A stretch of DNA of 64,000 nt from a candidate division WOR-3 bacterium. GTDB taxonomy: Bacteria; Hydrothermota; Hydrothermia; LBFQ01. The notes below the pieces were generated by a model. The model had not been told where the DNA came from and did no database searches. It worked only from the letters and a program-made list of their open reading frames with translations. The stretch lies in NCBI GenBank assembly GCA_027003075.1, contig JALWYV010000020.1, forward strand, positions 902 through 64,901. Direction: 5' to 3'. A program made the position numbers and the translations under genes. Positions 13,278 through 23,286 of this stretch are shown here, one piece after another (within the stretch, counting starts at the first letter, position 1; every line of letters starts with the position of its first letter).

Positions 13278-14600
13278 CTACTGCGTAATCTTCCATACGA
13301 AGGAAAGGCCGAAGGAGTAGGCGTAGAGTTCCTTCGTTATGAGGGGGATCTTGAAGTCCACGTAAGGGTAGGAGATGTGGCCAAAGGCCCTTGAGATCTG
13401 GAAAGAGAATATGAAACTCTCCGAGGCGTAGAAAGCTCCCAATTGCCAGCAGGATAGCCTTTCCCCCTGAAAGCGGAGGTCAAGGCCTCCGAAGCCCCCG
13501 TACTCCCCTCCCGCCCGCCAGAAGAGCGCCAATCCCTCACCGGATACTTTCGCCGTGGCATAAACGTTCTCCCCCGTGTAAGAGAGGGTAAGAAACGGAT
13601 AGGTCCCACCCCGCACCGGGAAGGCGTGAGTTCCGGTAGTACTTACGCTGTCCCTCAACGACCCTTCCGTTTTCAGACCCACCGTGGCGCTTCCCCGCAG
13701 ATATACGGTATCGGAGTCGGCCGAATACTCGGCGTAGAGGTCGTTGTTGAACAGTTCGCTCCTGACCCAGTTTCCCACAAGATCCGAGATGTAGTTGTAG
13801 TAAAGGGAGTCCGAGAAGTTGAGGGTTAGGGTCCTGAAGGTTTCAACACCTCCACCCAGCCTGAACCTTCCGAAACGCCTCCCGAATTGAAAGCCGGCGT
13901 TGTAGAGTATAGTCGGGTCCATCTCAAAGGAGTACACGTACCTCGCAACGTTCTCTTCGGCGAACTGGAAGCCGAAAACGGCCTCGTTCTGGACACCCGA
14001 TAGGGCGAAGGTGTCCTCGTATATCTGCCCTCCCACGTACCTTATATCCCATCCCCCTTTACCGGAAAACCGGCTAACGTTTCCCTCAACGTTGAGGAAG
14101 TAATCTCCGAAGTTCTTACCTATTCCGAAGGTTATGGGCAGATAGGAGAATCCACTCTCGGACGTAAGGATGGGCTGGATCGTGACGTTCCCTTTTATCC
14201 TCCACGTAACCGGCACCTTTCCCCTCAGGTCGTCCACCTCAACGGGTAGTAGTGTGTCCTCTATGGTGGCGTCTATCTCCCCCCAGATAACCTCCGGAGG
14301 GTTTCCCTGAAGGGCGCTCGTGCCAAGGGGAGGGGTGGAGACGTATACGGAGGGCAGGGCGATATAGAAACTCCAGTCCCCTGACCACATGAGGGAAGTA
14401 TGGAACCGCATACCGTTTGAAACCTTGAAGGCCACGGGAAAGGTGTAGTTGTCGGGAAGACCTTCGGGCTTAACGAAAGTCTGGAGGTTGTCTATCTGGG
14501 CGAAGTTGAAACCACCGGACACATACGTGGTTTCGGCAGGAACCTCGTACAGGAACAGGGGTGGGGGTGGAAGGAAGTAAAATAGCGAGAACTCTACCAT
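13278..14600 (-). CDS. Hypothetical aromatic/glycine-rich protein (possible outer-membrane beta-barrel)
   Basis: Long ORF with coding-like composition; no recognised family. Confidence 0.5.
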   Translation of the reverse strand: MVEFSLFYFLPPPPLFLYEVPAETTYVSGGFNFAQIDNLQTFVKPEGLPDNYTFPVAFKVSNGMRFHTSLMWSGDWSFYIALPSVYVSTPPLGTSALQGNPPEVIWGEIDATIEDTLLPVEVDDLRGKVPVTWRIKGNVTIQPILTSESGFSYLPITFGIGKNFGDYFLNVEGNVSRFSGKGGWDIRYVGGQIYEDTFALSGVQNEAVFGFQFAEENVARYVYSFEMDPTILYNAGFQFGRRFGRFRLGGGVETFRTLTLNFSDSLYYNYISDLVGNWVRSELFNNDLYAEYSADSDTVYLRGSATVGLKTEGSLRDSVSTTGTHAFPVRGGTYPFLTLSYTGENVYATAKVSGEGLALFWRAGGEYGGFGGLDLRFQGERLSCWQLGAFYASESFIFSFQISRAFGHISYPYVDFKIPLITKELYAYSFGLSFVWKITQ

Positions 14601-14672
14601 GGGTTACCTCCCATTTGAAGGATACCGACCATTAGAATAGGGTATTCTACACTTGAGCGTGGATTGTTACCG

Positions 14673-15062
14673 TCAGCCCCACCCGTGGTACACCTGAAAA
14701 CAGGCTTCCCCGGTCCTTCTGTTAAAGTACAGATAGACCTTTGTAACCTTCAGTTCCCTCCGGGCGGTTTCGTTGTCCCTCTCCGCCCTGTAGAACAGTA
14801 TATCCGGATCTTTGAGGTACCTCCTACCCATAGGGCAGTGGACCCGGAAGTCGGCATTACTGAACTCACTCATATGGATGTCGTAGAAGTCCCTTTGAGT
14901 TACGCTGTCAAGCCTGAGAATTTCTACGATCCGCCTTATCTGACTCTCCGTAGCCTTAAACCTGTGCAGAAATATCCGGTAAGGGGCGACCTGCCGGGTC
15001 TGGTTCACCCTCAAACCGAGGTCGTGCCGGTCAAAGAAGTCCTGAACACTTTTCCGTTCCAT
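14673..15062 (-). CDS. Hypothetical protein (129 aa)
   Basis: AGG-rich Arg usage consistent with host genes; a Pro-rich 158-aa ORF on the opposite strand judged antisense artefact; strand call tentative. Confidence 0.35.
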   Translation of the reverse strand: MERKSVQDFFDRHDLGLRVNQTRQVAPYRIFLHRFKATESQIRRIVEILRLDSVTQRDFYDIHMSEFSNADFRVHCPMGRRYLKDPDILFYRAERDNETARRELKVTKVYLYFNRRTGEACFQVYHGWG

Positions 15063-15131
15063 CGCAAGGCTTATCCGGTTGCCGGGATAGTTGAACGGTC
15101 TATCCCGCCTTTCCCCATACGTACCACATGT

Positions 15132-16091
15132 TTATTTTAGAACATTTTTGAAATATCTGCGACCTTTTGCTGTAATATCAAGAATTCGCGCATACCCCCT
15201 ACTATCCTTTAAAATTTTCAAATATCCCCTTTCTGCAAAATAATCTAATAAGTTGTTAACTATTATTCTATCACATCCTACTCTCTCGGAAATCTCATAA
15301 TCATTTTTTATATTTTCATTGACTATATATGCAATTACTCTTTTAAAAATATCTTCCCATCCTTCTAAAAAAACTTCACAATACTTTATAAAACCCCGAG
15401 TACTCATAACAATCATTGTCCAACCTGCTGGAAATCTTGTGAGTTTTATTAGCCCTTTTTCTTCAAGTATTTCCAGAGATTCGCTAACTTCATCTTCTGT
15501 GATGCCATACTCTTCAGATTTATGAAGAATTTCAATTGATGTTAATATCTTACTTAAATCTCCCTTTTGTAGAATGATATCTCCCATTATTTTTAACACT
15601 AACTCATCAATTTTGTTATAATCCGAAGTTTTACGTTCAACTATGGCAAATTTAGGTGGCTCGCCCAGAGGAGACTTATCTATCACTTCATAAATTGTTT
15701 TGAGTATCTGCTGAAACTCCTTCTCATAATTGGATAGGTCTCGTACTTTCACCCACATGAGATGCTTTAGACTTGTTGGAACCCCGACATCTTCGTCAAT
15801 TATTATCGGGATTATTCTTGTTTTTCCTTCAATCCTTTTTATAACAGCGGAATTTAATTCTTCTTTAATCCATTTTTTATTAGCGCTATACTTTGATAGG
15901 ACTATTATAAATACATCGCAATTTTTAATTCCTTCCTCAAAAATTTTCTCCACAATACTATCGCCAGGTTTTATTTCCCATTTATCTACCCAAGCATCAA
16001 CACCTTTTGACCTAAGCTTTTTTGCAAATTCCAATACGAACCGTTCTTTATCTTCGCTCGCATGGCTTATAAACACTTTCGGATTCTTCAC
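15132..16091 (-). CDS. TIR-domain protein with C-terminal tandem winged-helix-like extension
   Basis: KVFISHASEDKERF...GVDAWVDKWEIKPGDSI...CDVFIIVLSKYSANKKWIKEEL bacterial TIR signature with conserved Glu; gene lies in a roughly 37% GC island. Confidence 0.8.
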   Translation of the reverse strand: MKNPKVFISHASEDKERFVLEFAKKLRSKGVDAWVDKWEIKPGDSIVEKIFEEGIKNCDVFIIVLSKYSANKKWIKEELNSAVIKRIEGKTRIIPIIIDEDVGVPTSLKHLMWVKVRDLSNYEKEFQQILKTIYEVIDKSPLGEPPKFAIVERKTSDYNKIDELVLKIMGDIILQKGDLSKILTSIEILHKSEEYGITEDEVSESLEILEEKGLIKLTRFPAGWTMIVMSTRGFIKYCEVFLEGWEDIFKRVIAYIVNENIKNDYEISERVGCDRIIVNNLLDYFAERGYLKILKDSRGYARILDITAKGRRYFKNVLK

Positions 16092-16179
16092 AGTAGGAAT
16101 TATACACCCGGCTATACCTCCGTCCCCGACCCAAAAAGGGGAGGGTTCCCCCTCCCCCTCTTATTTTTAAGCCCCACCT

Positions 16180-18510
16180 CTACCTTACCACCACCTTCCG
16201 GGTCTTACCCTTCGCCGAAACGAAGTAAACGCCTCTGTTAAGGTGTACCTGACCACCGTCCGAAAGCTCGGAAACGAGCCTGCCGGAGAGGTCGTAGACC
16301 CTTAGGTTAGCCTTTGCCTTCAGGACATTTCCGGCAAGGGAAAAGCCGTGCAGCTCCGCAGCTATACGCTCCCGTACTTCGGTTGTGACGGGCAACTGCA
16401 CCTTCCACATACCACGGCCGTGGGTGGCGACTATCAGATACGTATGTGTAGGCTCTATCTCAAGGTCGTAGATAGCCGTTGAGGGAACACCGTTTATCTT
16501 CGTATACGTACTCTGATCCATGGAGTAATACAGGCCGTTGTACGTCCCTACGTAGATCGTGTGGGGAGTCGTGGTGAAGTCCACCTCAAGGGCGAGGGCA
16601 GGGGTGTTGGGTAGGTCACCGCTTATATCCGTCCACGTTGCGCCGGCATCGCTGGAGTAAACTACCTTCGCCCCGTAACTCTGCTTTATCGTGGCGTATA
16701 CCTCGGCGGCGTTATCGGGGTTTATGACGATGTCAAAGATGTCCTCCCACGTACTTACGTCGGGCAGGGTCCTGTCTATCCAGGTGCTACCACCGTCAAA
16801 GGAGACCTTGAAGTCCGCAGAACTGGATCCCACGTAAAGGGTGTCCATAGTGGGAGATACGGCCATAGACATGAGGTATCCGGAGGATGAGGAGACGAGA
16901 GAGCCGGATATGGCGGACCAGTTAAGGCCTCCGTCCGTACTCTTCCATAGCCTGTAAGTCCCGGCGAAGACCGTCTGAGTGTTCCCGGTGGGATCGGCCT
17001 CAAGGGGTCCACACGTCCAGCAGGCCCTATCTCCGGACCAGGGGGTCCCTATGTAATTGACGTACTGGAAAGCTGTACCGTCCCATTCGTGCAACTTCAG
17101 GCTGCTCATCTGGACGTAGGTCGTCAGTATACTATCGGGGGCGAAGGGGAACCATAGGACAGGACCACCATCGCCGCCGCGGATGTTCTCCCAGTCGTCT
17201 CCCCACGGAGCGTACCAACCAGCCGTACCGTTGTCCTGAGTACCTCCGGCTACGAGAGAGGAGTCGTCAGGATGAACGTCAAGGGTGTAGAACTGGGTTA
17301 TGCCGAGGCCCCCGTTGAGGTTCTCCCATGAATCTCCGTAATCGTAACTACGCCATAGACCACCGTCGCAGGCGACGTAGAGGGCACCGTCCGCTCCCCA
17401 CGCGAAGTGCTGAATATCAGGATGTACCTTACCGCCGGTTCCACGGTCTGTAACGTCCGTCCACGTGTTTCCACCGTCAAACGTTCTGACTATACCGTGA
17501 TGGTTGGAGTCGTAAGGAAACACCCCTCCGGCGAAAACGGTGTCGGGATTGGTAGGATGTACTATAATGGCGTGGTCGTAACTACCCTGAGAGTAAAGGT
17601 AATCGGGTGTGTTGGTGAGCTGTATCCATGTGGCACCTCCGTCCGTTGTCTTATACAGACCTTCCAGCCCACCTACGGTATTCGCAAAACTGGCGTATAC
17701 GACGTTGGGATCGGAGGGAGATACGGCCAGCTCAACCCTCGTTATGTTGCTTGTGGGTAGGGAGGTTATGACGTTCCACGTGCTGCCTCCATCCGTACTC
17801 TCATAGACTCCTTCGCCGTACACCCCTATGAACATGTGGTCGTAGTCGTCGGACCTCACGGCTATGCTGTTTACGTCGTTGGTGGTAAAGACCCAGCTCC
17901 AGGTGGCTCCTCCGTCGGTGCTTCGGGCCAGGCCGTCGTTACTGGCTACGAATATGACGTTCGGGTCGTTCGGTCTTATCCATATCTGGTCTATGTAGTC
18001 TCCTACCTCACTACGGGTGGCTATCTTGGTCCACGTTGCCCCGGCGTCAGTACTCCTGTAAAGACCATCACCGGTAAAACAGCTCCACCCACAGTAATGC
18101 AGCTCTCCCGTCCCGTAGTAGATGGTGTTGGGATCCGTGGGATCAAAAGCGAGTGCCCCACTCGCTATATTGGGAAGGCCATCTGTGAGTGGCGTCCACG
18201 TGCTCCCTCCATCCGTCGTCTTCCAGACACCCCCGCTGGCGGCTGCTATGTATATGGTATTTGGATCTGTAGGATGGGGGAGAATGTAGGAAATGCGCCC
18301 GCTAACCGTACCGTCGGACCACGGTTCGTCGTACATAGGACGTGGCCCTATGAACGTGGCCGATAGCGTAAAAACAGAAGGTACCCCATTGAAAGTTGCA
18401 CCTTTGGGAACGACCTCCACCATCCGACTCGCCTGAGCGTCCAGGCTCTCTGCGGGGACGATCTGAATGTCCCCATCGGTATAACCGAGAATTAAACATG
18501 TTAAAATCAT
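16180..18510 (-). CDS. BNR/Asp-box repeat beta-propeller protein with T9SS C-terminal sorting domain
   Basis: At least 8 SxDxGxTW motifs (TDGGSTW, TDGGATW, FDGGNTW, YDYGDSW...); C-terminus ...GVYFVSAKGKTRKVVVR. Confidence 0.75.
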   Translation of the reverse strand: MILTCLILGYTDGDIQIVPAESLDAQASRMVEVVPKGATFNGVPSVFTLSATFIGPRPMYDEPWSDGTVSGRISYILPHPTDPNTIYIAAASGGVWKTTDGGSTWTPLTDGLPNIASGALAFDPTDPNTIYYGTGELHYCGWSCFTGDGLYRSTDAGATWTKIATRSEVGDYIDQIWIRPNDPNVIFVASNDGLARSTDGGATWSWVFTTNDVNSIAVRSDDYDHMFIGVYGEGVYESTDGGSTWNVITSLPTSNITRVELAVSPSDPNVVYASFANTVGGLEGLYKTTDGGATWIQLTNTPDYLYSQGSYDHAIIVHPTNPDTVFAGGVFPYDSNHHGIVRTFDGGNTWTDVTDRGTGGKVHPDIQHFAWGADGALYVACDGGLWRSYDYGDSWENLNGGLGITQFYTLDVHPDDSSLVAGGTQDNGTAGWYAPWGDDWENIRGGDGGPVLWFPFAPDSILTTYVQMSSLKLHEWDGTAFQYVNYIGTPWSGDRACWTCGPLEADPTGNTQTVFAGTYRLWKSTDGGLNWSAISGSLVSSSSGYLMSMAVSPTMDTLYVGSSSADFKVSFDGGSTWIDRTLPDVSTWEDIFDIVINPDNAAEVYATIKQSYGAKVVYSSDAGATWTDISGDLPNTPALALEVDFTTTPHTIYVGTYNGLYYSMDQSTYTKINGVPSTAIYDLEIEPTHTYLIVATHGRGMWKVQLPVTTEVRERIAAELHGFSLAGNVLKAKANLRVYDLSGRLVSELSDGGQVHLNRGVYFVSAKGKTRKVVVR

Positions 18511-18598: not shown

Positions 18599-19945
18599 TT
18601 AAAACATCACTTTGAACACCTTCCTCCCGCTCTTTACGAAGTACACACCCGGTTTCAGACTCATCTTCCCGTACTCCCCCTCGTATATCAGCTTCCCGCT
18701 CACATCGTACACCTTCACATATCCGGAGGGCGTACCCTCACTTATAACCTCGCGGGTTTCCCTGACCTTCACCAGGGATATGGGCGCCTTACTGAAGAAG
18801 AGGTCAAGGTCCCCCTCCCTGCCGTCCGCCCATACGGCATAAACGTAATTGCTATCGGCGTATATGGTGTGGTAATCGCCCATGAATCCGACCGGTGAGG
18901 TGAAGGTCGTGTCCGTTATCCTTATCTCCGGGTTCCACGTCTGGCCGAAGTCGGGGGAGTAGCGGTACTTCACGGACCATAGGCTGAAGGTGTCCGTAGG
19001 CCACGAGGGGGTGTCGTAGTAGAAGACGTGAAGCCCTCCGTAGGGGTCAAACGTGGCCCATCCCTTACACTGGCCACCCGAAAGGTTCTGGTTCACGACG
19101 AAAGTGGGGGACCAGGTGTTTCCTCCGTCGTAGGAATAGGCGCCGAGAATGTCCCACGTGCCGTTGCGGTCGTCCACCCAGGTCACGAATACGGTATCGT
19201 CCCCGAATACGGCTATGGAGTTTATGGGGGCCCGGTCGCCGTAGCCGGAGTTGTAGGAGACGTAGTCTATCCTGACCGGCGAGGTCCACGATGAGCCGTG
19301 ATCGTAGGAACGCCTGTAGGTTATGTTTCCTGAAGTCCACTCAATGATAGCGAGATGGAGTATTCCACCCGGGGAAACGGCCAGAGAAACGAGGCCAGTG
19401 GTCGTTGGGTCAACGGTGAACCTCTGCCACGTCCTTCCCCTGTCGTAGGACCGGGCGAACCTTATCCCCTCCTCCGATCCTCCGAACTCCTGCCACGCCA
19501 CGTAAACGGTATCCCCCTTAACCACCATCCAGGGCTTATCAACGTCCCCACCTGTAGAGAGGTCGCTTATATTTGAAGTGTCGTGCCAGGTTATTCCTCC
19601 GTCCCTTGAGAGGTAATGCCGTACGACGTAAATTGAGAACTGCACCAGAAGATGTACGTACCCGGAGTCGTCTATTCCCACTACCGGATCTGTATGCCAG
19701 GTTATCCCCACGCTGTTGTCCACGAAGTTGTAGTTCGTCGGGAAGGTCGTTCCTCCGTCGTAAGATGCTGCAAACGGAAGGGCGGCGTACGATCCCCTCT
19801 CGTTCGTATTGCAGGCTACGAATATGCTGTCTCCGGAGGACGAGACGGCGAAGGAGGATTCCCCCTGATTGAGGGTAGGACCCGGATCCGCCGATATTTT
19901 CACGTTGGGCATGAAGGGGTAGTCTGTAAGGAGTAGCAGGATCAT
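18599..19945 (-). CDS. BNR/Asp-box repeat (sialidase-like propeller) protein with T9SS CTD
   Basis: DGGITW, DRGRTW, DHGSSW, DGGNTW, FGQTW repeats; ends GVYFVKSGRKVFKVMF. Confidence 0.75.
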   Translation of the reverse strand: MILLLLTDYPFMPNVKISADPGPTLNQGESSFAVSSSGDSIFVACNTNERGSYAALPFAASYDGGTTFPTNYNFVDNSVGITWHTDPVVGIDDSGYVHLLVQFSIYVVRHYLSRDGGITWHDTSNISDLSTGGDVDKPWMVVKGDTVYVAWQEFGGSEEGIRFARSYDRGRTWQRFTVDPTTTGLVSLAVSPGGILHLAIIEWTSGNITYRRSYDHGSSWTSPVRIDYVSYNSGYGDRAPINSIAVFGDDTVFVTWVDDRNGTWDILGAYSYDGGNTWSPTFVVNQNLSGGQCKGWATFDPYGGLHVFYYDTPSWPTDTFSLWSVKYRYSPDFGQTWNPEIRITDTTFTSPVGFMGDYHTIYADSNYVYAVWADGREGDLDLFFSKAPISLVKVRETREVISEGTPSGYVKVYDVSGKLIYEGEYGKMSLKPGVYFVKSGRKVFKVMF

Positions 19946-20292: not shown

Positions 20293-20339
20293 CGCCGTAT
20301 TATACGCCCGCAGATTTCAAGGGTAAAATATCGGACTCT

Positions 20340-21323
20340 ATGGGATACATGTGGGTGTTATATCTTTTGTTATTCGGGGTTTTGATTATAATATTGTTAA
20401 TTTCTCTTTTAATTTACACAATATACAAGAATTCGCATGTTTTTGATAGTGCCACGCTAGAAAATATTTTGGAAAATGTCATTTCCAAAATATGGATATC
20501 TTTAGGAATAAATAAAACCACAACTGAAATATCCATATATGCTGAGGAAATTAAGAAAATTGCATCAGGAATCAAAGAAGATATAAATACAAAAATAGGG
20601 GAAATTTCCACCTACACAAAAGAAATTAAAGATATACATAAAAATCTTGAAATAATGTTGAAATCTCCTGGGCCAAGAGGTGCTTTTGGTGAAATTGTTC
20701 TAGAACGTATATTACAGGATCACTTACCTCCTGACATGTATGAGATCCGAAAACAAATTCCCAACGGTAAGAAACCGGATGCTTACATAAAAACAATAGA
20801 GGGCATTATTTGTATAGATTCAAAATTTCCTCTTGAGAATTATATCAAAATGATTGAAAGTGAAGATGATAAAGAGCGTGAAAAATACAAAAAAGCATTC
20901 TTGAAGGATATAAAAGGGCATTTAATGAAGATAAAAGATAGTTATGTATCTCCAAGACACGGTACTTTGGACCTTGCTTTTGCATTTATACCATCTGAAA
21001 GTGTTTATTATTTTCTAATAAGCGAGGCGTATGATACCCTTAATGCCTTTATAAAAGACGGAGTCCATGTGGTGTCACCTCTTACGCTTGCGCACAAATT
21101 AGAACTGATAAAACTGGGAATTCATGCTAAAAAATTATCAAAGGAAGCGGAAAAGATTAGGGGTGTTATTTTATATCTTGGTGAAGAGTTTAACAAACTG
21201 GATAAAGAATGGAACACCTTGAACAACCATCTTAGGAATCTTTCAAACAAGGTACAACAAATAGGCGAAATTTATAATCAAATCAAAAAACAATTTGACG
21301 CTGTGAGGCAACAGTACAGTTAG
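20340..21323 (+). CDS. rmuC: DNA recombination protein RmuC homologue (low-GC)
   Basis: N-terminal TM, coiled coil, then RGAFGEIVLERIL...PDAYIKTIEGIICIDSKFPLENY RmuC nuclease-like core; about 30% GC. Confidence 0.75.
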   Translation: MGYMWVLYLLLFGVLIIILLISLLIYTIYKNSHVFDSATLENILENVISKIWISLGINKTTTEISIYAEEIKKIASGIKEDINTKIGEISTYTKEIKDIHKNLEIMLKSPGPRGAFGEIVLERILQDHLPPDMYEIRKQIPNGKKPDAYIKTIEGIICIDSKFPLENYIKMIESEDDKEREKYKKAFLKDIKGHLMKIKDSYVSPRHGTLDLAFAFIPSESVYYFLISEAYDTLNAFIKDGVHVVSPLTLAHKLELIKLGIHAKKLSKEAEKIRGVILYLGEEFNKLDKEWNTLNNHLRNLSNKVQQIGEIYNQIKKQFDAVRQQYS

Positions 21324-21970
21324 CTTCTCAACACCCCCTCTATCCTCCTCAGAACCTCCTCCACTTTCCCCACACCGTCCACCTCGTAGAAAATGCCCCT
21401 ATTCCTGTAGTAGTCTATCAGCGGAGCCGTACTCTCCCTGTACACCTTCAGCCTGTTCCTTATTACGTCCTCCCTGTCGTCTGACCTCTGCACCAGAGGG
21501 GTGCCGCATACGTCACAGATCTCGTCCCTCTTCGGAGGGTTATATATCATGTTGTAAACCGCACCGCAGTTGGGACATACACGACGGGCCGTCAGCCTCT
21601 TAACTATCTCCTCGTCCGGCACGTTGACGAATATAACGTGGCTCAGAGGCTTACCCCTTTCGGAAAGGAGTCTGTCCAGAGCCTCGGCTTGCTTCATAGT
21701 TCGGGGAAAACCGTCAAGGATGAAGGAGTCTACCCCCTGTATCTGCTCCTCTATAAGGCCGATTATGATATCGTCCGGCACCAGCTCCCCGGCATCCATG
21801 TACTTCTTTGCCTTCTTTCCCAGTTCCGTTCCCTTACGCACGGCCTCCCTGAGTATATCTCCTGTTGATATCTTCTTTATGCCGTACTTCTCAGACAGAA
21901 GGGAGGCCTGAGTTCCCTTACCGGCACCGGGGGGACCCAGAAAGACTATCCTATACCCGTTGTTCTCCAT
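21320..21970 (-). CDS. adk: Adenylate kinase (zinc-finger LID type)
   Basis: GPPGAGKGTQ P-loop; CPNCG...CDVCG lid. Confidence 0.9.
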   Translation of the reverse strand: MENNGYRIVFLGPPGAGKGTQASLLSEKYGIKKISTGDILREAVRKGTELGKKAKKYMDAGELVPDDIIIGLIEEQIQGVDSFILDGFPRTMKQAEALDRLLSERGKPLSHVIFVNVPDEEIVKRLTARRVCPNCGAVYNMIYNPPKRDEICDVCGTPLVQRSDDREDVIRNRLKVYRESTAPLIDYYRNRGIFYEVDGVGKVEEVLRRIEGVLRS

Positions 21971-23286
21971 GATCTTACCTTCGCTTTTCCGAGAAGGCTG
22001 TCGTACCTGTACATCACGAGGTAGGAGTTTATCTTCTGGAGCAGGTCAAGGGCCACACCCACGATGATGAGGAGCCTCGTTCCGCCGTAGTAAATAGGTA
22101 TGTTCATTGCCTTAGAAATATGGTACGGCACTATAGCGACGAGAGCGAAGAATATGGCGGCAGGGAAGATTATACGGGTCAGTATACGGTCAATGTACTC
22201 CGCTGTCTCCTCGCCTGCCCTTACACCGGGTATGAAGGCGCCACTGCGCTGGAGGTTATCCGCCACGTCCTTGGGGTTGAACATGATGGAGGTGTACAGA
22301 TAGGCGAAGAATATGATCAGGAAGGCGTAGGTCACATCGTAAAGCCACGTACCGGGCTGGAACATGGCCGCTATACCGGACATGAACTCCAGTTTACCTC
22401 CCCCACCCGTAAGCATGGTCTGGGGGAAAAGCAGGATACTCTGAGCGAAGATTATGGGCATCACGCCGGCCGTGTTGACCGTAAGGGGAAGGTACCCCGT
22501 CTGGGTGGTCGGACTTAACCCAACCGTCCTCTTGGCATAACTTATGGGGACCCTCCTCTGGACTTCCGTAACGGCGACCACCGCCCCGGTTATGAGGAGG
22601 AAGAACGTCAAGGCGAATATAAGGGCCGGCGTCTCTATCGCGCCGTTCTTCCAGAGGGTGTAGGTGGATATGATCTCGTTGGGTATGGATTCAAGTGAGC
22701 CAGCGAATATGAGAACGGAAGCACCGTTCCCTATACCCCTGTCGGTTATCTGCTCACCCATCCACATCAAAAGTATGGCACCACCCACCAGAGATATGAC
22801 TGTGGAGATCACGAAGAGAGGCCCGGGATTGGGAACTATGAGCTGACCGGAGGGACTGGGTGGAAGGTTCGTGAGGAACGTGGTTATACCGATAGCCTGA
22901 ATGGTGGATATGGCCACGGTGAGCCACCGGGTATAACGGGTTAGTATTCGCCTTCCGGCTTCACCTTCCCTCTGAAGCCTCTCAAAGTAGGGAACCGTGG
23001 CGGCCAGCAGCTGGATTACGATAGAGGCAGAGATGTAGGGCATTATTCCGAGGCCGAAGATAGCGGCACGCGACAGGGCACCACCGGCGAAGATGTCAAA
23101 CATGCCGAAGGCCGTGTTGGCGAGGGCCTGACGGAAGTACTCAACGAGGGCGTGGGAGTTCACACCCGGAACGGGTATATGCGTGCCGACACGGTAGAAG
23201 AAGAGGATGATGAGCGTAAAGAGTATCCTATCCCTGAGTTCCTTTATCTCCCACAGACCGCTCAGGGACCTCCACAGCCTCTCCAT
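21946..23286 (-). CDS. secY: Preprotein translocase subunit SecY
   Basis: Full-length 10-TM SecY. Confidence 0.9.
   Translation of the reverse strand: MERLWRSLSGLWEIKELRDRILFTLIILFFYRVGTHIPVPGVNSHALVEYFRQALANTAFGMFDIFAGGALSRAAIFGLGIMPYISASIVIQLLAATVPYFERLQREGEAGRRILTRYTRWLTVAISTIQAIGITTFLTNLPPSPSGQLIVPNPGPLFVISTVISLVGGAILLMWMGEQITDRGIGNGASVLIFAGSLESIPNEIISTYTLWKNGAIETPALIFALTFFLLITGAVVAVTEVQRRVPISYAKRTVGLSPTTQTGYLPLTVNTAGVMPIIFAQSILLFPQTMLTGGGGKLEFMSGIAAMFQPGTWLYDVTYAFLIIFFAYLYTSIMFNPKDVADNLQRSGAFIPGVRAGEETAEYIDRILTRIIFPAAIFFALVAIVPYHISKAMNIPIYYGGTRLLIIVGVALDLLQKINSYLVMYRYDSLLGKAKVRSWRTTGIG

Follow-up and report, generated by a model that had tools for sequence, protein, structure and literature searches.

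A single gene in the 64-kb stretch of DNA analysed here (the window) encodes a protein that joins an N-terminal TIR domain to two winged helices (wHTH). It probably represents a self-contained, horizontally acquired one-protein conflict system, most likely antiphage and of the abortive-infection type. The single-gene status of the system is supported by comparative genomics across 76 loci. If the protein acts as proposed, the family is a very widespread, compact defence gene (about 320 aa) that does not have a catalogue name of its own. A stand-alone TIR-wHTH defence or abortive-infection module had already been suggested in the initial annotation, and this part is favoured by the comparative evidence (76 loci without a conserved neighbour, a defence and mobile-element context, and exchange of the C-terminal module). 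The antiphage systems with TIR proteins named there, Thoeris, CBASS, Pycsar and SPARTA, do not fit by membership tests.

Gene organization and composition

The coding sequence is complete (15132..16091, minus strand; GTG start, 319 codons plus stop), and 56 homologues have N-termini that agree with this GTG as the start. The recorded protein P0001 is identical to it. Upstream, an intrinsic-terminator-like hairpin (GGGGGAGGGGGAACCCTCCCC followed by a T run; 16139..16158, minus strand), found by a terminator scan and visible in the sequence, ends a 776-aa gene and separates it from the TIR gene. An extended -10-like box, TGTATAAT (16099..16106, minus strand), can be read 8 nt upstream of the GTG. 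This box is a possible promoter of the gene's own, from which a nearly leaderless mRNA would be transcribed. A two-hexamer promoter scan called no promoter for the TIR gene, TGTATAAT included.

The gene lies, as first described, between a secDF block and T9SS cargo genes. Its upstream flank codes for a Sortilin/BNR protein whose C-terminal tail is of the T9SS type, and downstream are a 129-aa ORF, a 440-aa ORF, TetR and SecD/SecF. The window copy is thus surrounded by ordinary genes (secretion cargo, TetR, SecDF) and not by a classical defence island. Only a single RmuC island is found nearby, 4 kb from the TIR gene.

The composition of the gene differs strongly from that of its surroundings. 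The ORF has a GC content of 0.327 and a GC3 of 0.263, against about 55% GC and a GC3 of 0.64-0.72 in the native flanking genes, and lies 5.1 standard deviations under the mean of all 960-nt windows. A change-point fit delimits a low-GC segment at 15125-16104 (GC 0.327 inside, 0.551 outside). Its edges coincide with those of the ORF within about 13 nt, so that it is essentially the coding sequence alone, and the intergenic DNA on both sides has a host-like GC (0.545-0.551). The AT-rich single-gene island described initially is therefore a large and real break, although the values attached to it (about 37% against 55-60%) were slightly off; the GC is 0.346 over 15132-16180 and 0.540 over the whole window.

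Turnover in close relatives

The gene is foreign-looking and acquired horizontally, but not necessarily recently. In L091, a relative whose flanking genes are about 88-90% identical at the nucleotide level, a decayed 54-codon remnant of the TIR gene is found at the same site, so the gene predates the split from L091. This genome keeps the same hairpin upstream of the remnant, as well as the TATAAT of the -10-like box. In addition, the GC of the gene is below that of its flanks in 72 of the 76 loci; low GC is a family-wide trait and hence not simply a mark of recency. The recent acquisition first proposed is not borne out by these two observations.

The gene is absent from this site in L086-L088. 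It is not fixed in close relatives; the initial annotation had named its presence at this locus in all relatives, with housekeeping synteny, as an observation that would speak against its reading, and this is not what is seen. Intact gene, decayed remnant and absence together represent fine-scale defence-gene turnover in one thermophilic lineage. The neighbouring adk junction is a separate insertion hot spot, which is occupied by RmuC here and by GmrSD in two relatives, and is empty in four others.

The TIR domain

The TIR domain (residues 1-133; 15693..16091, minus strand) is recognized by Pfam TIR_2 (PF13676) with 106.8 bits (cutoff 28; E = 1.4e-30); the match extends over residues 6-130 and the full 122-position model, in agreement with the original TIR assignment. 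The conserved Glu that had been noticed in KWIKEEL is E78 (W74-I-K-E-E78-L; codon at 15858..15860, minus strand). It is invariant across 57 homologues and aligned to the Glu of the AbTIR motif W-x-x-x-E-L, and is the predicted catalytic residue on both grounds. This motif Glu is the catalytic E208 of AbTir (PMC10022894), a protein that depletes NAD+ by cleaving it and has been described as a producer of v-cADPR (2'cADPR) (PMC10022894). In the 57 homologues, 16 residues are invariant, E78 among them, and the window copy has all 16.

With the family profile, bacterial TIR chains are matched at E-values from 5e-18 to 5e-24, among them the NAD(+) hydrolase AbTIR, and the motifs FISHASEDK and W-D-x-x-E-x-x-x-GDSL are near-identical in the matched chains. 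The domain combines the TIR fold with the conserved catalytic Glu in a W-x-x-x-E motif, as expected of an enzymatic TIR. Judged from its sequence, it belongs to the AbTIR/TcpB/PdTIR class of NADases and is likely to cleave NAD. The core is 30-45% identical to those of AbTIR, TcpB (BtpA) and PdTIR, and has the motifs FISHASEDK, W-x-D-x-x-E-x-x-x-GDSL and W-x-x-x-E-L in common with them. Proteins of this class have an N-terminal coiled-coil or other region ahead of the TIR domain. In AbTIR, the TIR domain is C-terminal (residues 157-292; PMC10022894), whereas in the window protein it is N-terminal and followed by the tandem winged-helix unit. The archaeal NADase TcpO, which has been biochemically tested, was considered as a family member and rejected, its TIR domain being C-terminal as well (residues 204-341; PMC10022894). 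In its predicted N-terminal fold, the window protein most resembles a prokaryotic SEFIR structure.

The tandem winged-helix module

Structure prediction returns two winged helices (pLDDT 96.7) and confirms that the protein is a genuine TIR-wHTH fusion with a tandem winged-helix-like C-terminus, as had been suspected. Modelled alone, the C-terminal unit reaches a pLDDT of 96.7 and a pTM of 0.89, and residues 160-319 are predicted to form one rigid pair of packed winged helices. The full-length AlphaFold2 (AF2) model has a pLDDT of 89.4 and a pTM of 0.55, so that confidence is low in how the TIR domain and the module are placed relative to each other. The two are connected by a linker (residues 134-159; 15615..15692, minus strand) of low pLDDT (49-74) with the motif K139-P-P-L-G-x-x-P146. 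K139, P140, G143 and P146 are conserved in at least 95% of the family; the window copy has a Ser at position 140.

Winged helix 1 (residues 160-230; 15402..15614, minus strand) is acidic, with an invariant D162 and conserved Glu on helix 3 (200-210). Winged helix 2 and the C-terminal helix (residues 231-319; 15135..15401, minus strand) are delimited by AF2, sub-threshold Pfam matches and conservation. N258 shows almost no variation, and conserved basic residues (K/R311, R312, R/K315) form a patch on the last helix.

The winged helices are structurally most like the MarR, SarA, HrcA and RosR regulators. All Pfam wHTH matches are below their gathering scores (TrmB, with 21.3 bits against 25.6, HTH_Crp_2, wHTH-PRTase_assc and HTH_34). 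In comparison with MarR/TrmB-type regulators, the winged-helix fold is present, but neither a match above the HMM threshold nor a basic or polar recognition helix is found. The module has an acidic character throughout the family (median pI 5.0, net charge -7), and helix 3 of winged helix 1 carries conserved E200, E201, E204, E207 and E210 where DNA-contacting residues are expected. The acidic nature of the module and the Glu on the would-be recognition helix suggest that the winged helices are probably not classical DNA binders, and sequence features of this kind make an ordinary pair of DNA-binding domains unlikely.

The same data bear on whether the protein is a transcription factor or nucleoid-associated protein that binds DNA, with the TIR as an interaction or ligand-sensing domain and no immune role. 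Such a role would fit the regulator-like folds, the faint TrmB and Crp-type HTH matches and the basic patch K/R311-R312-R315. It is nevertheless highly improbable in view of the acidic module (median pI 5.0, charge -7) with Glu on helix 3 of winged helix 1, the invariant catalytic Glu and full NADase-type motif set, the patchy, AT-shifted distribution, the gain and loss of the gene in closely related genomes, and the presence of the same module behind caspase, kinase and deaminase heads.

Distribution and genomic context of the family

The full-length TIR-wHTH architecture is found in more than 1,100 proteins and is very patchy across phyla. The gene occurs in at least 287 species representatives from very distant phyla, archaea included. 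Only one plasmid-borne copy was found, on a mobilizable plasmid, and no full-length copy is phage-borne.

The genomic context was surveyed at 76 loci from reference genomes, using a naive ORF caller and the 2023 PADLOC library. No partner gene is conserved across the 76 loci. The most frequent neighbour is present in only 15 of them. A separate scan covered 133 immediate neighbours, excluding 13 of the HmaC genes that recur upstream, and no family appears in it more than four times. In the window, the absence of a ThsA, SIR2, SLOG, pAgo, cyclase or STING partner, already remarked upon in the initial annotation, is confirmed by PADLOC, which, run on the other 61 ORFs, gave matches only to the candidate model PDC-S03. 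The 129-aa downstream ORF was considered as a partner and rejected, as it has no family match, a host-like GC3 and no relative at any other locus.

Across the family, defence genes or mobile elements are often close by; they include Type ISP/IIG restriction enzymes, SLATT/2TM effectors, AriA, AbiLi, integrases and transposases. An overlap of 4 nt with the upstream gene is seen in 19 of the 76 loci; at these loci the TIR-wHTH gene probably forms the end of an operon and may act jointly with other genes. In 14 of the 76, it overlaps the stop codon of HmaC, with HmaA, HmaB and HEC-02 upstream, and the neighbours give full-length PADLOC matches to HmaA, HmaB and HmaC at E = 0. An assignment of these DUF499/DUF1156 neighbours to MADS, from weak mad2/mad3 matches, was rejected on account of the E = 0 matches. 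In five other loci, the 4-nt overlap involves small upstream genes, which are unrelated to each other except for one near-identical pair.

Another reading is that the protein has an accessory or regulatory role in larger, restriction-like systems such as Hma, as a subunit that provides a NAD-depletion back-up or control. The window copy would then be an orphan that no longer has its system and is perhaps inactive or decaying. The HmaC overlap in 14 of the 76 loci, the five further loci with small overlapping genes and the decay of the gene in L091 point in this direction. Still, we consider it quite unlikely. The Hma association is restricted to one sequence clade (14-15 of the 76 loci), most loci being without Hma. 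Furthermore, Hma loci harbour unrelated, independently active defence genes (10.1101/2024.01.29.577857), so that adjacency to Hma is evidence of a defence function and not of subunit status. There are no Hma genes in the window and the protein matches no HEC model, while the gene itself is intact, has 16 of 16 invariant residues, and follows a terminator with a -10-like box of its own.

Comparison with known defence systems

bSEFIR consists of one protein only and depletes NAD+ through its N-terminal SEFIR domain (10.1101/2022.05.11.491447; 10.1101/2024.02.11.579819). The bSEFIR of Bacillus sp. NIO-1130 resembles the TIR-wHTH protein in being one protein with an N-terminal TIR-superfamily domain and a non-catalytic C-terminus, and both families extend over many phyla, including archaea. 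They differ in that the window protein has a TIR of the TIR_2/AbTIR type by sequence and not a SEFIR domain. For this reason it fails the inclusion rule of the bSEFIR authors (Millman 2022), a SEFIR match stronger than the TIR match. Moreover, the C-terminal half of bSEFIR, as represented by the PADLOC model, has no similarity to that of the window protein. Identity with bSEFIR was rejected on these two grounds. Plain membership in this single-gene family has little probability, despite the common layout (one gene, N-terminal TIR-like NADase, C-terminal region) and a PADLOC bSEFIR match over residues 1-276 (E = 3.9e-26): TIR_2 (1.4e-30) outscores SEFIR (6.3e-8), the family profile matches AbTIR at about 1e-22 to 2e-22 but 5y8f only at 2.6e-6, and residues 141-319 alone have no PADLOC bSEFIR match at E <= 1. 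The TIR-wHTH protein is analogous to bSEFIR but outside its membership criteria.

TIR domains can also serve as signal generators or scaffolds. Thoeris ThsB is likewise a TIR protein, responsive to phage, and the ThsB_TIR and PADLOC ThsB models match the window protein weakly. ThsB proteins are without the tandem-wHTH module, and ThsB acts together with an adjacent ThsA-type effector. The 61 other ORFs of the window include no such effector (SIR2/SLOG, Macro-TM or caspase-like ThsA), and none recurs among the 133 immediate neighbours or in the clustering of the 76 loci. The ThsB_TIR score (30.9 bits, cutoff 21.2) is far weaker than that of TIR_2, and the Thoeris type III model ThcB4 scores 32 against 220.

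A Thoeris-like generator, in which the TIR domain makes a cyclic-ADPR-type messenger for an effector encoded unlinked elsewhere in the genome, is rather unlikely. It would agree with a TIR core closest to AbTIR, a described v-cADPR (2'cADPR) producer (PMC10022894), with the ThsB_TIR score above its cutoff and the weak matches to several PADLOC ThsB models, and the window covers only 64 kb of the genome. Against this, ThsA, SLOG, SIR2, Macro and caspase effectors are absent from the window, no such effector recurs within 10 kb in the 76 loci, the NCBIfam Thoeris type III model stays at 32 bits against a cutoff of 220, and the same module is carried by caspase, kinase and deaminase heads, whose action is direct and does not pass through a messenger.

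The remaining TIR-containing systems do not fit the window protein. In place of the APAZ region of SPARTA and short pAgo TIR-APAZ proteins there is a tandem winged helix, with no pAgo in the window, and TIR-APAZ chains match the family profile through the TIR only (E about 1e-5). The CBASS/Pycsar effector model CAP12-PCTIR_TIR gives E = 0.056, below the cutoff, and neither a SAVED/STING fold nor a cyclase in the window accompanies it. The retron type XII RT-TIR model NF042941 (NCBIfam) reaches 85.9 of the 600 bits required, through the TIR part only, and there is no RT domain.

DSR2 is comparable in that a NAD-degrading head and a C-terminal sensor are combined in one polypeptide. Single-protein sensor-effector defences such as DSR2 have a SIR2 head, are much larger proteins and use unrelated sensor domains. 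For DSR1/DSR2, the summary in 10.1101/2024.02.11.579819 describes a sensor that presumably binds a component of the phage.

Of the PADLOC models, PDC-S66 scores best on the TIR core (1.2e-26), and it is also a single-gene candidate. This model covers only residues 5-96 of the window protein, leaving the tandem wHTH uncovered; these residues align to positions 150-240 of its 282, and PDC-S66 therefore has the TIR at the opposite end. The 2023 PADLOC library matches the TIR-wHTH protein only via generic TIR/SEFIR models, and a literature search on TIR-wHTH/TIR-HTH names, on "bSEFIR" as a word and on PDC-S66 gave nothing informative.

Proposed mechanism and exchange of the module

In the one-protein conflict system favoured here, the N-terminal TIR domain would be the effector, which once active would convert NAD+ to nicotinamide and ADP-ribose and/or a cyclic ADPR isomer. 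The C-terminal 160 residues, with their two packed winged helices, would act as sensor of the trigger and as regulator. In the resting state, the module and the conserved proline-rich linker might prevent TIR assembly. This auto-inhibition step goes beyond the predicted structure, in which the orientation of TIR and module has low confidence (pTM 0.55). Binding of an infection-derived ligand would then lead to TIR self-association, and this oligomerisation would create the composite active site required by TIR NADases. The resulting NAD+ collapse would leave an infected cell that no longer supports the phage. Given the acidity of the module, a phage protein, presumably a basic one, is a more likely ligand than canonical double-stranded DNA. 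If it works in this way, the protein could provide a minimal system for how ligand binding licenses TIR assembly.

A search with a profile of just the C-terminal unit recovers 1,110 cluster representatives. The module is also fused to a caspase (P0147), to an APOBEC-like cytidine deaminase (P0190) and to a Ser/Thr kinase (seven proteins, one with AbiJ_NTD3 too), and is present in a TIR plus WD40 protein (P0223). A constant tail with a variable enzymatic head is the pattern of sensor-effector immune proteins. We tentatively propose, as a rather speculative extension, that the rigid acidic tandem-wHTH unit might be an unnamed, widely exchanged immune sensor, by which one infection signal would be coupled to at least four effector chemistries (NADase, protease, kinase and deaminase). 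In a bolder form, the acidic helix surface may mimic nucleic acid, so that a basic DNA- or RNA-binding protein of the phage is trapped and serves as the trigger. If true, the sensor role of the module would define a new multi-effector, one-protein defence family in bacteria and archaea, and its ligand, once found, would explain the activation of a whole effector set. The kinase-headed version is located within a type I RM/GmrSD island.

Architecture of the TIR-wHTH protein

The TIR-wHTH coding sequence (15132-16091, minus strand, GTG start, 319 aa) is the sole ORF in the region singled out by the initial annotation. Residues 1-133 form a TIR fold in the AlphaFold2 model. Pfam TIR_2 matches residues 6-130 (E = 1.4e-30), and TIR, SEFIR and ThsB_TIR match far less well. 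With a profile built from 57 family members, AbTIR, TcpB, PdTIR and the bacterial TIR protein 7uxr were retrieved from the PDB at E = 5e-18 to 5e-24, whereas the prokaryotic SEFIR domain 5y8f was reached only at 2.6e-6. Sixteen positions are invariant in the family alignment, all of them in the TIR domain except D162. E78 is invariant and aligned to the motif glutamate of AbTIR; in AbTir, which depletes NAD+, the catalytic residue is E208 (PMC10022894). The canonical TIR domain with a conserved glutamate that had been proposed is thus borne out: judged from its sequence, the protein has an intact, conserved AbTIR-type TIR domain, keeping the predicted catalytic glutamate.

The full-length model, built from the family alignment, is confident (mean pLDDT 89.4), with an uncertain inter-domain geometry (pTM 0.55). 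The TIR domain is followed by a low-confidence linker, predicted to be disordered (residues 134-159; window 15615-15692). Its motif, K-P-P-L-G-x-x-P, shows at least 95% conservation in the family; in the window copy the first P is replaced by S. Beyond the linker lie two helix-helix-helix-hairpin modules (residues 160-229 and 245-306) and a final helix. Modelled alone, this C-terminal unit of 164 residues gave a pLDDT of 96.7 and a pTM of 0.89, so the two winged-helix modules, already suspected at the C-terminus, are predicted to pack as one rigid body and not as two beads. Structure matches to the unit each span one module only (at most 111 residues), and no counterpart of the whole tandem was found among solved structures or in the viral structure library.

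Winged helices could point to a DNA-binding regulator. Classical DNA binding is nevertheless doubted from the sequence, because every Pfam wHTH match to the window protein stays below its threshold and the module is acidic family-wide (median pI 5.0, net charge -7). In addition, the first module has conserved glutamates at 200, 201, 204, 207 and 210 on its helix 3, which usually serves for recognition, and the sole conserved basic patch of the module is K/R311-R312-R315 in the last helix. A regulator of this kind is considered a minor alternative.

The C-terminal module on other effector domains

The result weighing most in our reading of the gene is the exchange of this module between effectors. 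A profile of the C-terminal unit, compared with 1.84 billion representatives, retrieved 1,110 proteins, 796 of them at E ≤ 1e-10. The TIR architecture makes up the majority. The same module is also joined to a caspase domain (protein P0147), to Ser/Thr kinase domains (P0164, P0174, P0183, P0250, P0257 and P0261), to an APOBEC-like cytidine deaminase (P0190) and to a combination of AbiJ_NTD3, zinc ribbon and kinase (P0162). It stands between TIR and a WD40 propeller in P0223, and the order is reversed in P0161, with the module preceding TIR. The AbiJ-kinase version adjoins an integrase and is part of a type I RM/GmrSD-Schlafen cluster. The module's behaviour is that of a common tail, sensory or regulatory, carried by effector heads that can replace one another.

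Family distribution and genomic context

The full-length architecture gave 1,163 matches at E ≤ 1e-3; the best 120 of these all measure 312-358 aa and share 38-52% identity over 91-100% of the query. When one genome per species was scanned with a pattern, relatives came up in at least 287 species, a lower bound. Carriers include Zixibacteria (best match, 50%), Methanobacterium, Chloroflexota, Acidobacteriota, Nitrospirota, Planctomycetota, Bacteroidota and many Proteobacteria, including Methylococcus capsulatus and Vibrio cincinnatiensis. One family member resides on a mobilizable Rhodoferax plasmid; the phage collection held no full-length copy.

ORFs were called in 80 loci with a simple longest-ORF caller and all neighbours were clustered; 76 loci were usable. 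No general neighbour emerged among these 76, the most frequent being HmaC (15/76). The HmaC stop codon falls within a 4-nt overlap with the TIR-wHTH gene in 14 loci (e.g., L009, L057 and L013), a sign that the two genes may be translationally coupled in a beta-proteobacterial clade. The neighbouring HmaA, HmaB and HmaC, together with the embedded gene HEC-02, match PADLOC models (PADLOC-DB, 2023 version) at E = 0. Complete Hma systems (HmaA, HmaB, HmaC) are present in L009 (13-10004), with HEC-02 embedded, and in 13 similar loci. Embedded genes occur in 62.7% of Hma loci, and seven of nine tested candidates were active (Payne et al., 10.1101/2024.01.29.577857), so that adjacency to this restriction-like system counts as evidence for a defence role. 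The overlap would also suit an accessory subunit of Hma, a minor alternative given how few of the loci have HmaC beside the gene.

The other immediate neighbours are a mixture that includes Type ISP/IIG restriction enzymes, SLATT/2TM effectors, AriA, AbiLi, AAA_21 ATPases, additional TIR genes, integrases, transposases and a phage lysozyme. Among 133 immediate neighbours scanned, with 13 of the recurrent upstream HmaC genes excluded, no family occurred in more than four. In the window itself, the downstream 129-aa ORF has a host-like composition and no family match, and nothing related to it lies close to the other family members. The initial annotation had seen no partner gene, and PADLOC agrees: among the 61 other window ORFs, only the candidate single-gene model PDC-S03 was matched, by three ORFs (best E = 5e-45). 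The main alternative is a signal generator of the Thoeris type whose effector gene lies elsewhere in the genome; interchangeable heads on one module argue for a self-contained protein.

Proposed function and relation to known systems

For such a self-contained protein, we infer an NAD+-cleaving, infection-aborting function from sequence, structure prediction and genomic context. The C-terminal tail would sense an infection cue, which its charge suggests to be a protein rather than duplex DNA. TIR NADases need self-association for their composite active site, and sensing may free or nucleate this association. NAD+ would then be cleaved and the infection aborted, by analogy with bSEFIR and other NAD+-depleting systems, for which both outcomes have been reported (10.1101/2022.05.11.491447; 10.1101/2024.02.11.579819).

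Functionally, bSEFIR is the closest system, likewise a single protein with an N-terminal TIR-superfamily NADase, an activity predicted here. Plain membership in bSEFIR is a minor alternative and was rejected: its inclusion rule demands that SEFIR outscore TIR (10.1101/2022.05.11.491447), and the window protein scores TIR above SEFIR. The bSEFIR model and the window protein have nothing in common outside the catalytic domain. Thoeris, SPARTA, CBASS/Pycsar and retron-TIR were also rejected on their defining features. The gene would be a single-protein TIR NADase defence, a known kind, with a new sensor module. A TIR-tandem-wHTH system was not named in any paper that the literature search, of incomplete coverage, brought up; earlier descriptions in comparative genomics are possible.

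Composition and history in the host lineage

The low-GC segment, delimited at 15125-16104 by a two-state change-point fit, coincides with the TIR coding sequence. GC is 0.327 in the ORF, 0.346 over 15132-16180 and 0.540 in the whole window; relative to all 960-nt windows, the ORF falls 5.1 sd under the mean. Native genes on the flanks have a GC3 of 0.64-0.72 and the ORF one of 0.263; the intergenic DNA on either side is host-like (GC 0.545-0.551). The single-gene compositional island described initially is thus confirmed. It represents the extreme end of a tendency of the family, since the gene has a lower GC than its flanks in 72 of the 76 usable loci (median difference -5.8 points; 17 loci below -10).

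Upstream, a strong hairpin and the T run after it (16139-16158) mark the end of the 776-aa Sortilin/BNR gene. An extended -10-like box, TGTATAAT (16099-16106, minus strand), lies only 8 nt before the GTG start, suggesting a nearly leaderless transcript beginning close to this codon. A two-hexamer scan did not call the box as a promoter.

Relatives of SecY (21946-23286), encoded 6 kb away, reach at least 90% identity, and some are named Thermotogae/Thermotogota bacterium MAGs; as the window encodes proteins with Por/T9SS-type sorting tails, the phylum label is perhaps worth checking. No second sequence at least 90% identical to the TIR protein was present in the protein collection.

Locus L091 (JGI metagenome 3300003872; 85-90% nucleotide identity) retains the SecY-adk-114aa-449aa ... 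440aa-TetR-SecD-SecF backbone. Where the window has the TIR gene, L091 carries a 63-aa ORF (13734-13925), corresponding to the first 54 codons at 68.5% identity, with the same upstream hairpin and TATAAT. The substitutions H10Y, D14G and W34R remove family-invariant residues, and a stop lies just before the 440-aa gene. This decayed remnant indicates that the gene was present before the lineages split and was then lost in L091. In the closer loci L086-L088 (94-95% identity) synteny ends directly after the 448-aa gene and the site holds no copy. Of the proposed recent horizontal acquisition, foreign origin and accessory status stand; "recent" is not supported, as the gene predates the split. 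In L087, the 448-aa BNR gene is immediately followed, at the synteny break, by 1.9 kb (13683-15615) that contain no called gene (GC 0.47, no Ns).

The 776-aa and 448-aa BNR/Sortilin genes (16180-18510 and 18599-19945, both minus strand) have similar T9SS-type C-terminal tails. L091 lacks the 776-aa gene and its 449-aa gene has a tail aligning with that of the 776-aa gene, which suggests deletion or duplication through recombination between the paralogous tails.

The sole other comparably AT-rich spot in the 64-kb window, 20315-21299, marks a second single-gene island (20311-21326; GC 0.32, GC3 0.30). It carries an RmuC-family ORF (20340-21323, plus strand; PF02646, E = 1.4e-45) with an N-terminal membrane helix. 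At the junction of adk with its next gene, L087, L088, L091 and L092 have only a short spacer (16 nt in L087 and L088); L086 and L089 have a 628-aa GmrSD_N gene. From these sequences, the junction resembles a small hot spot at which genes of defence type insert.
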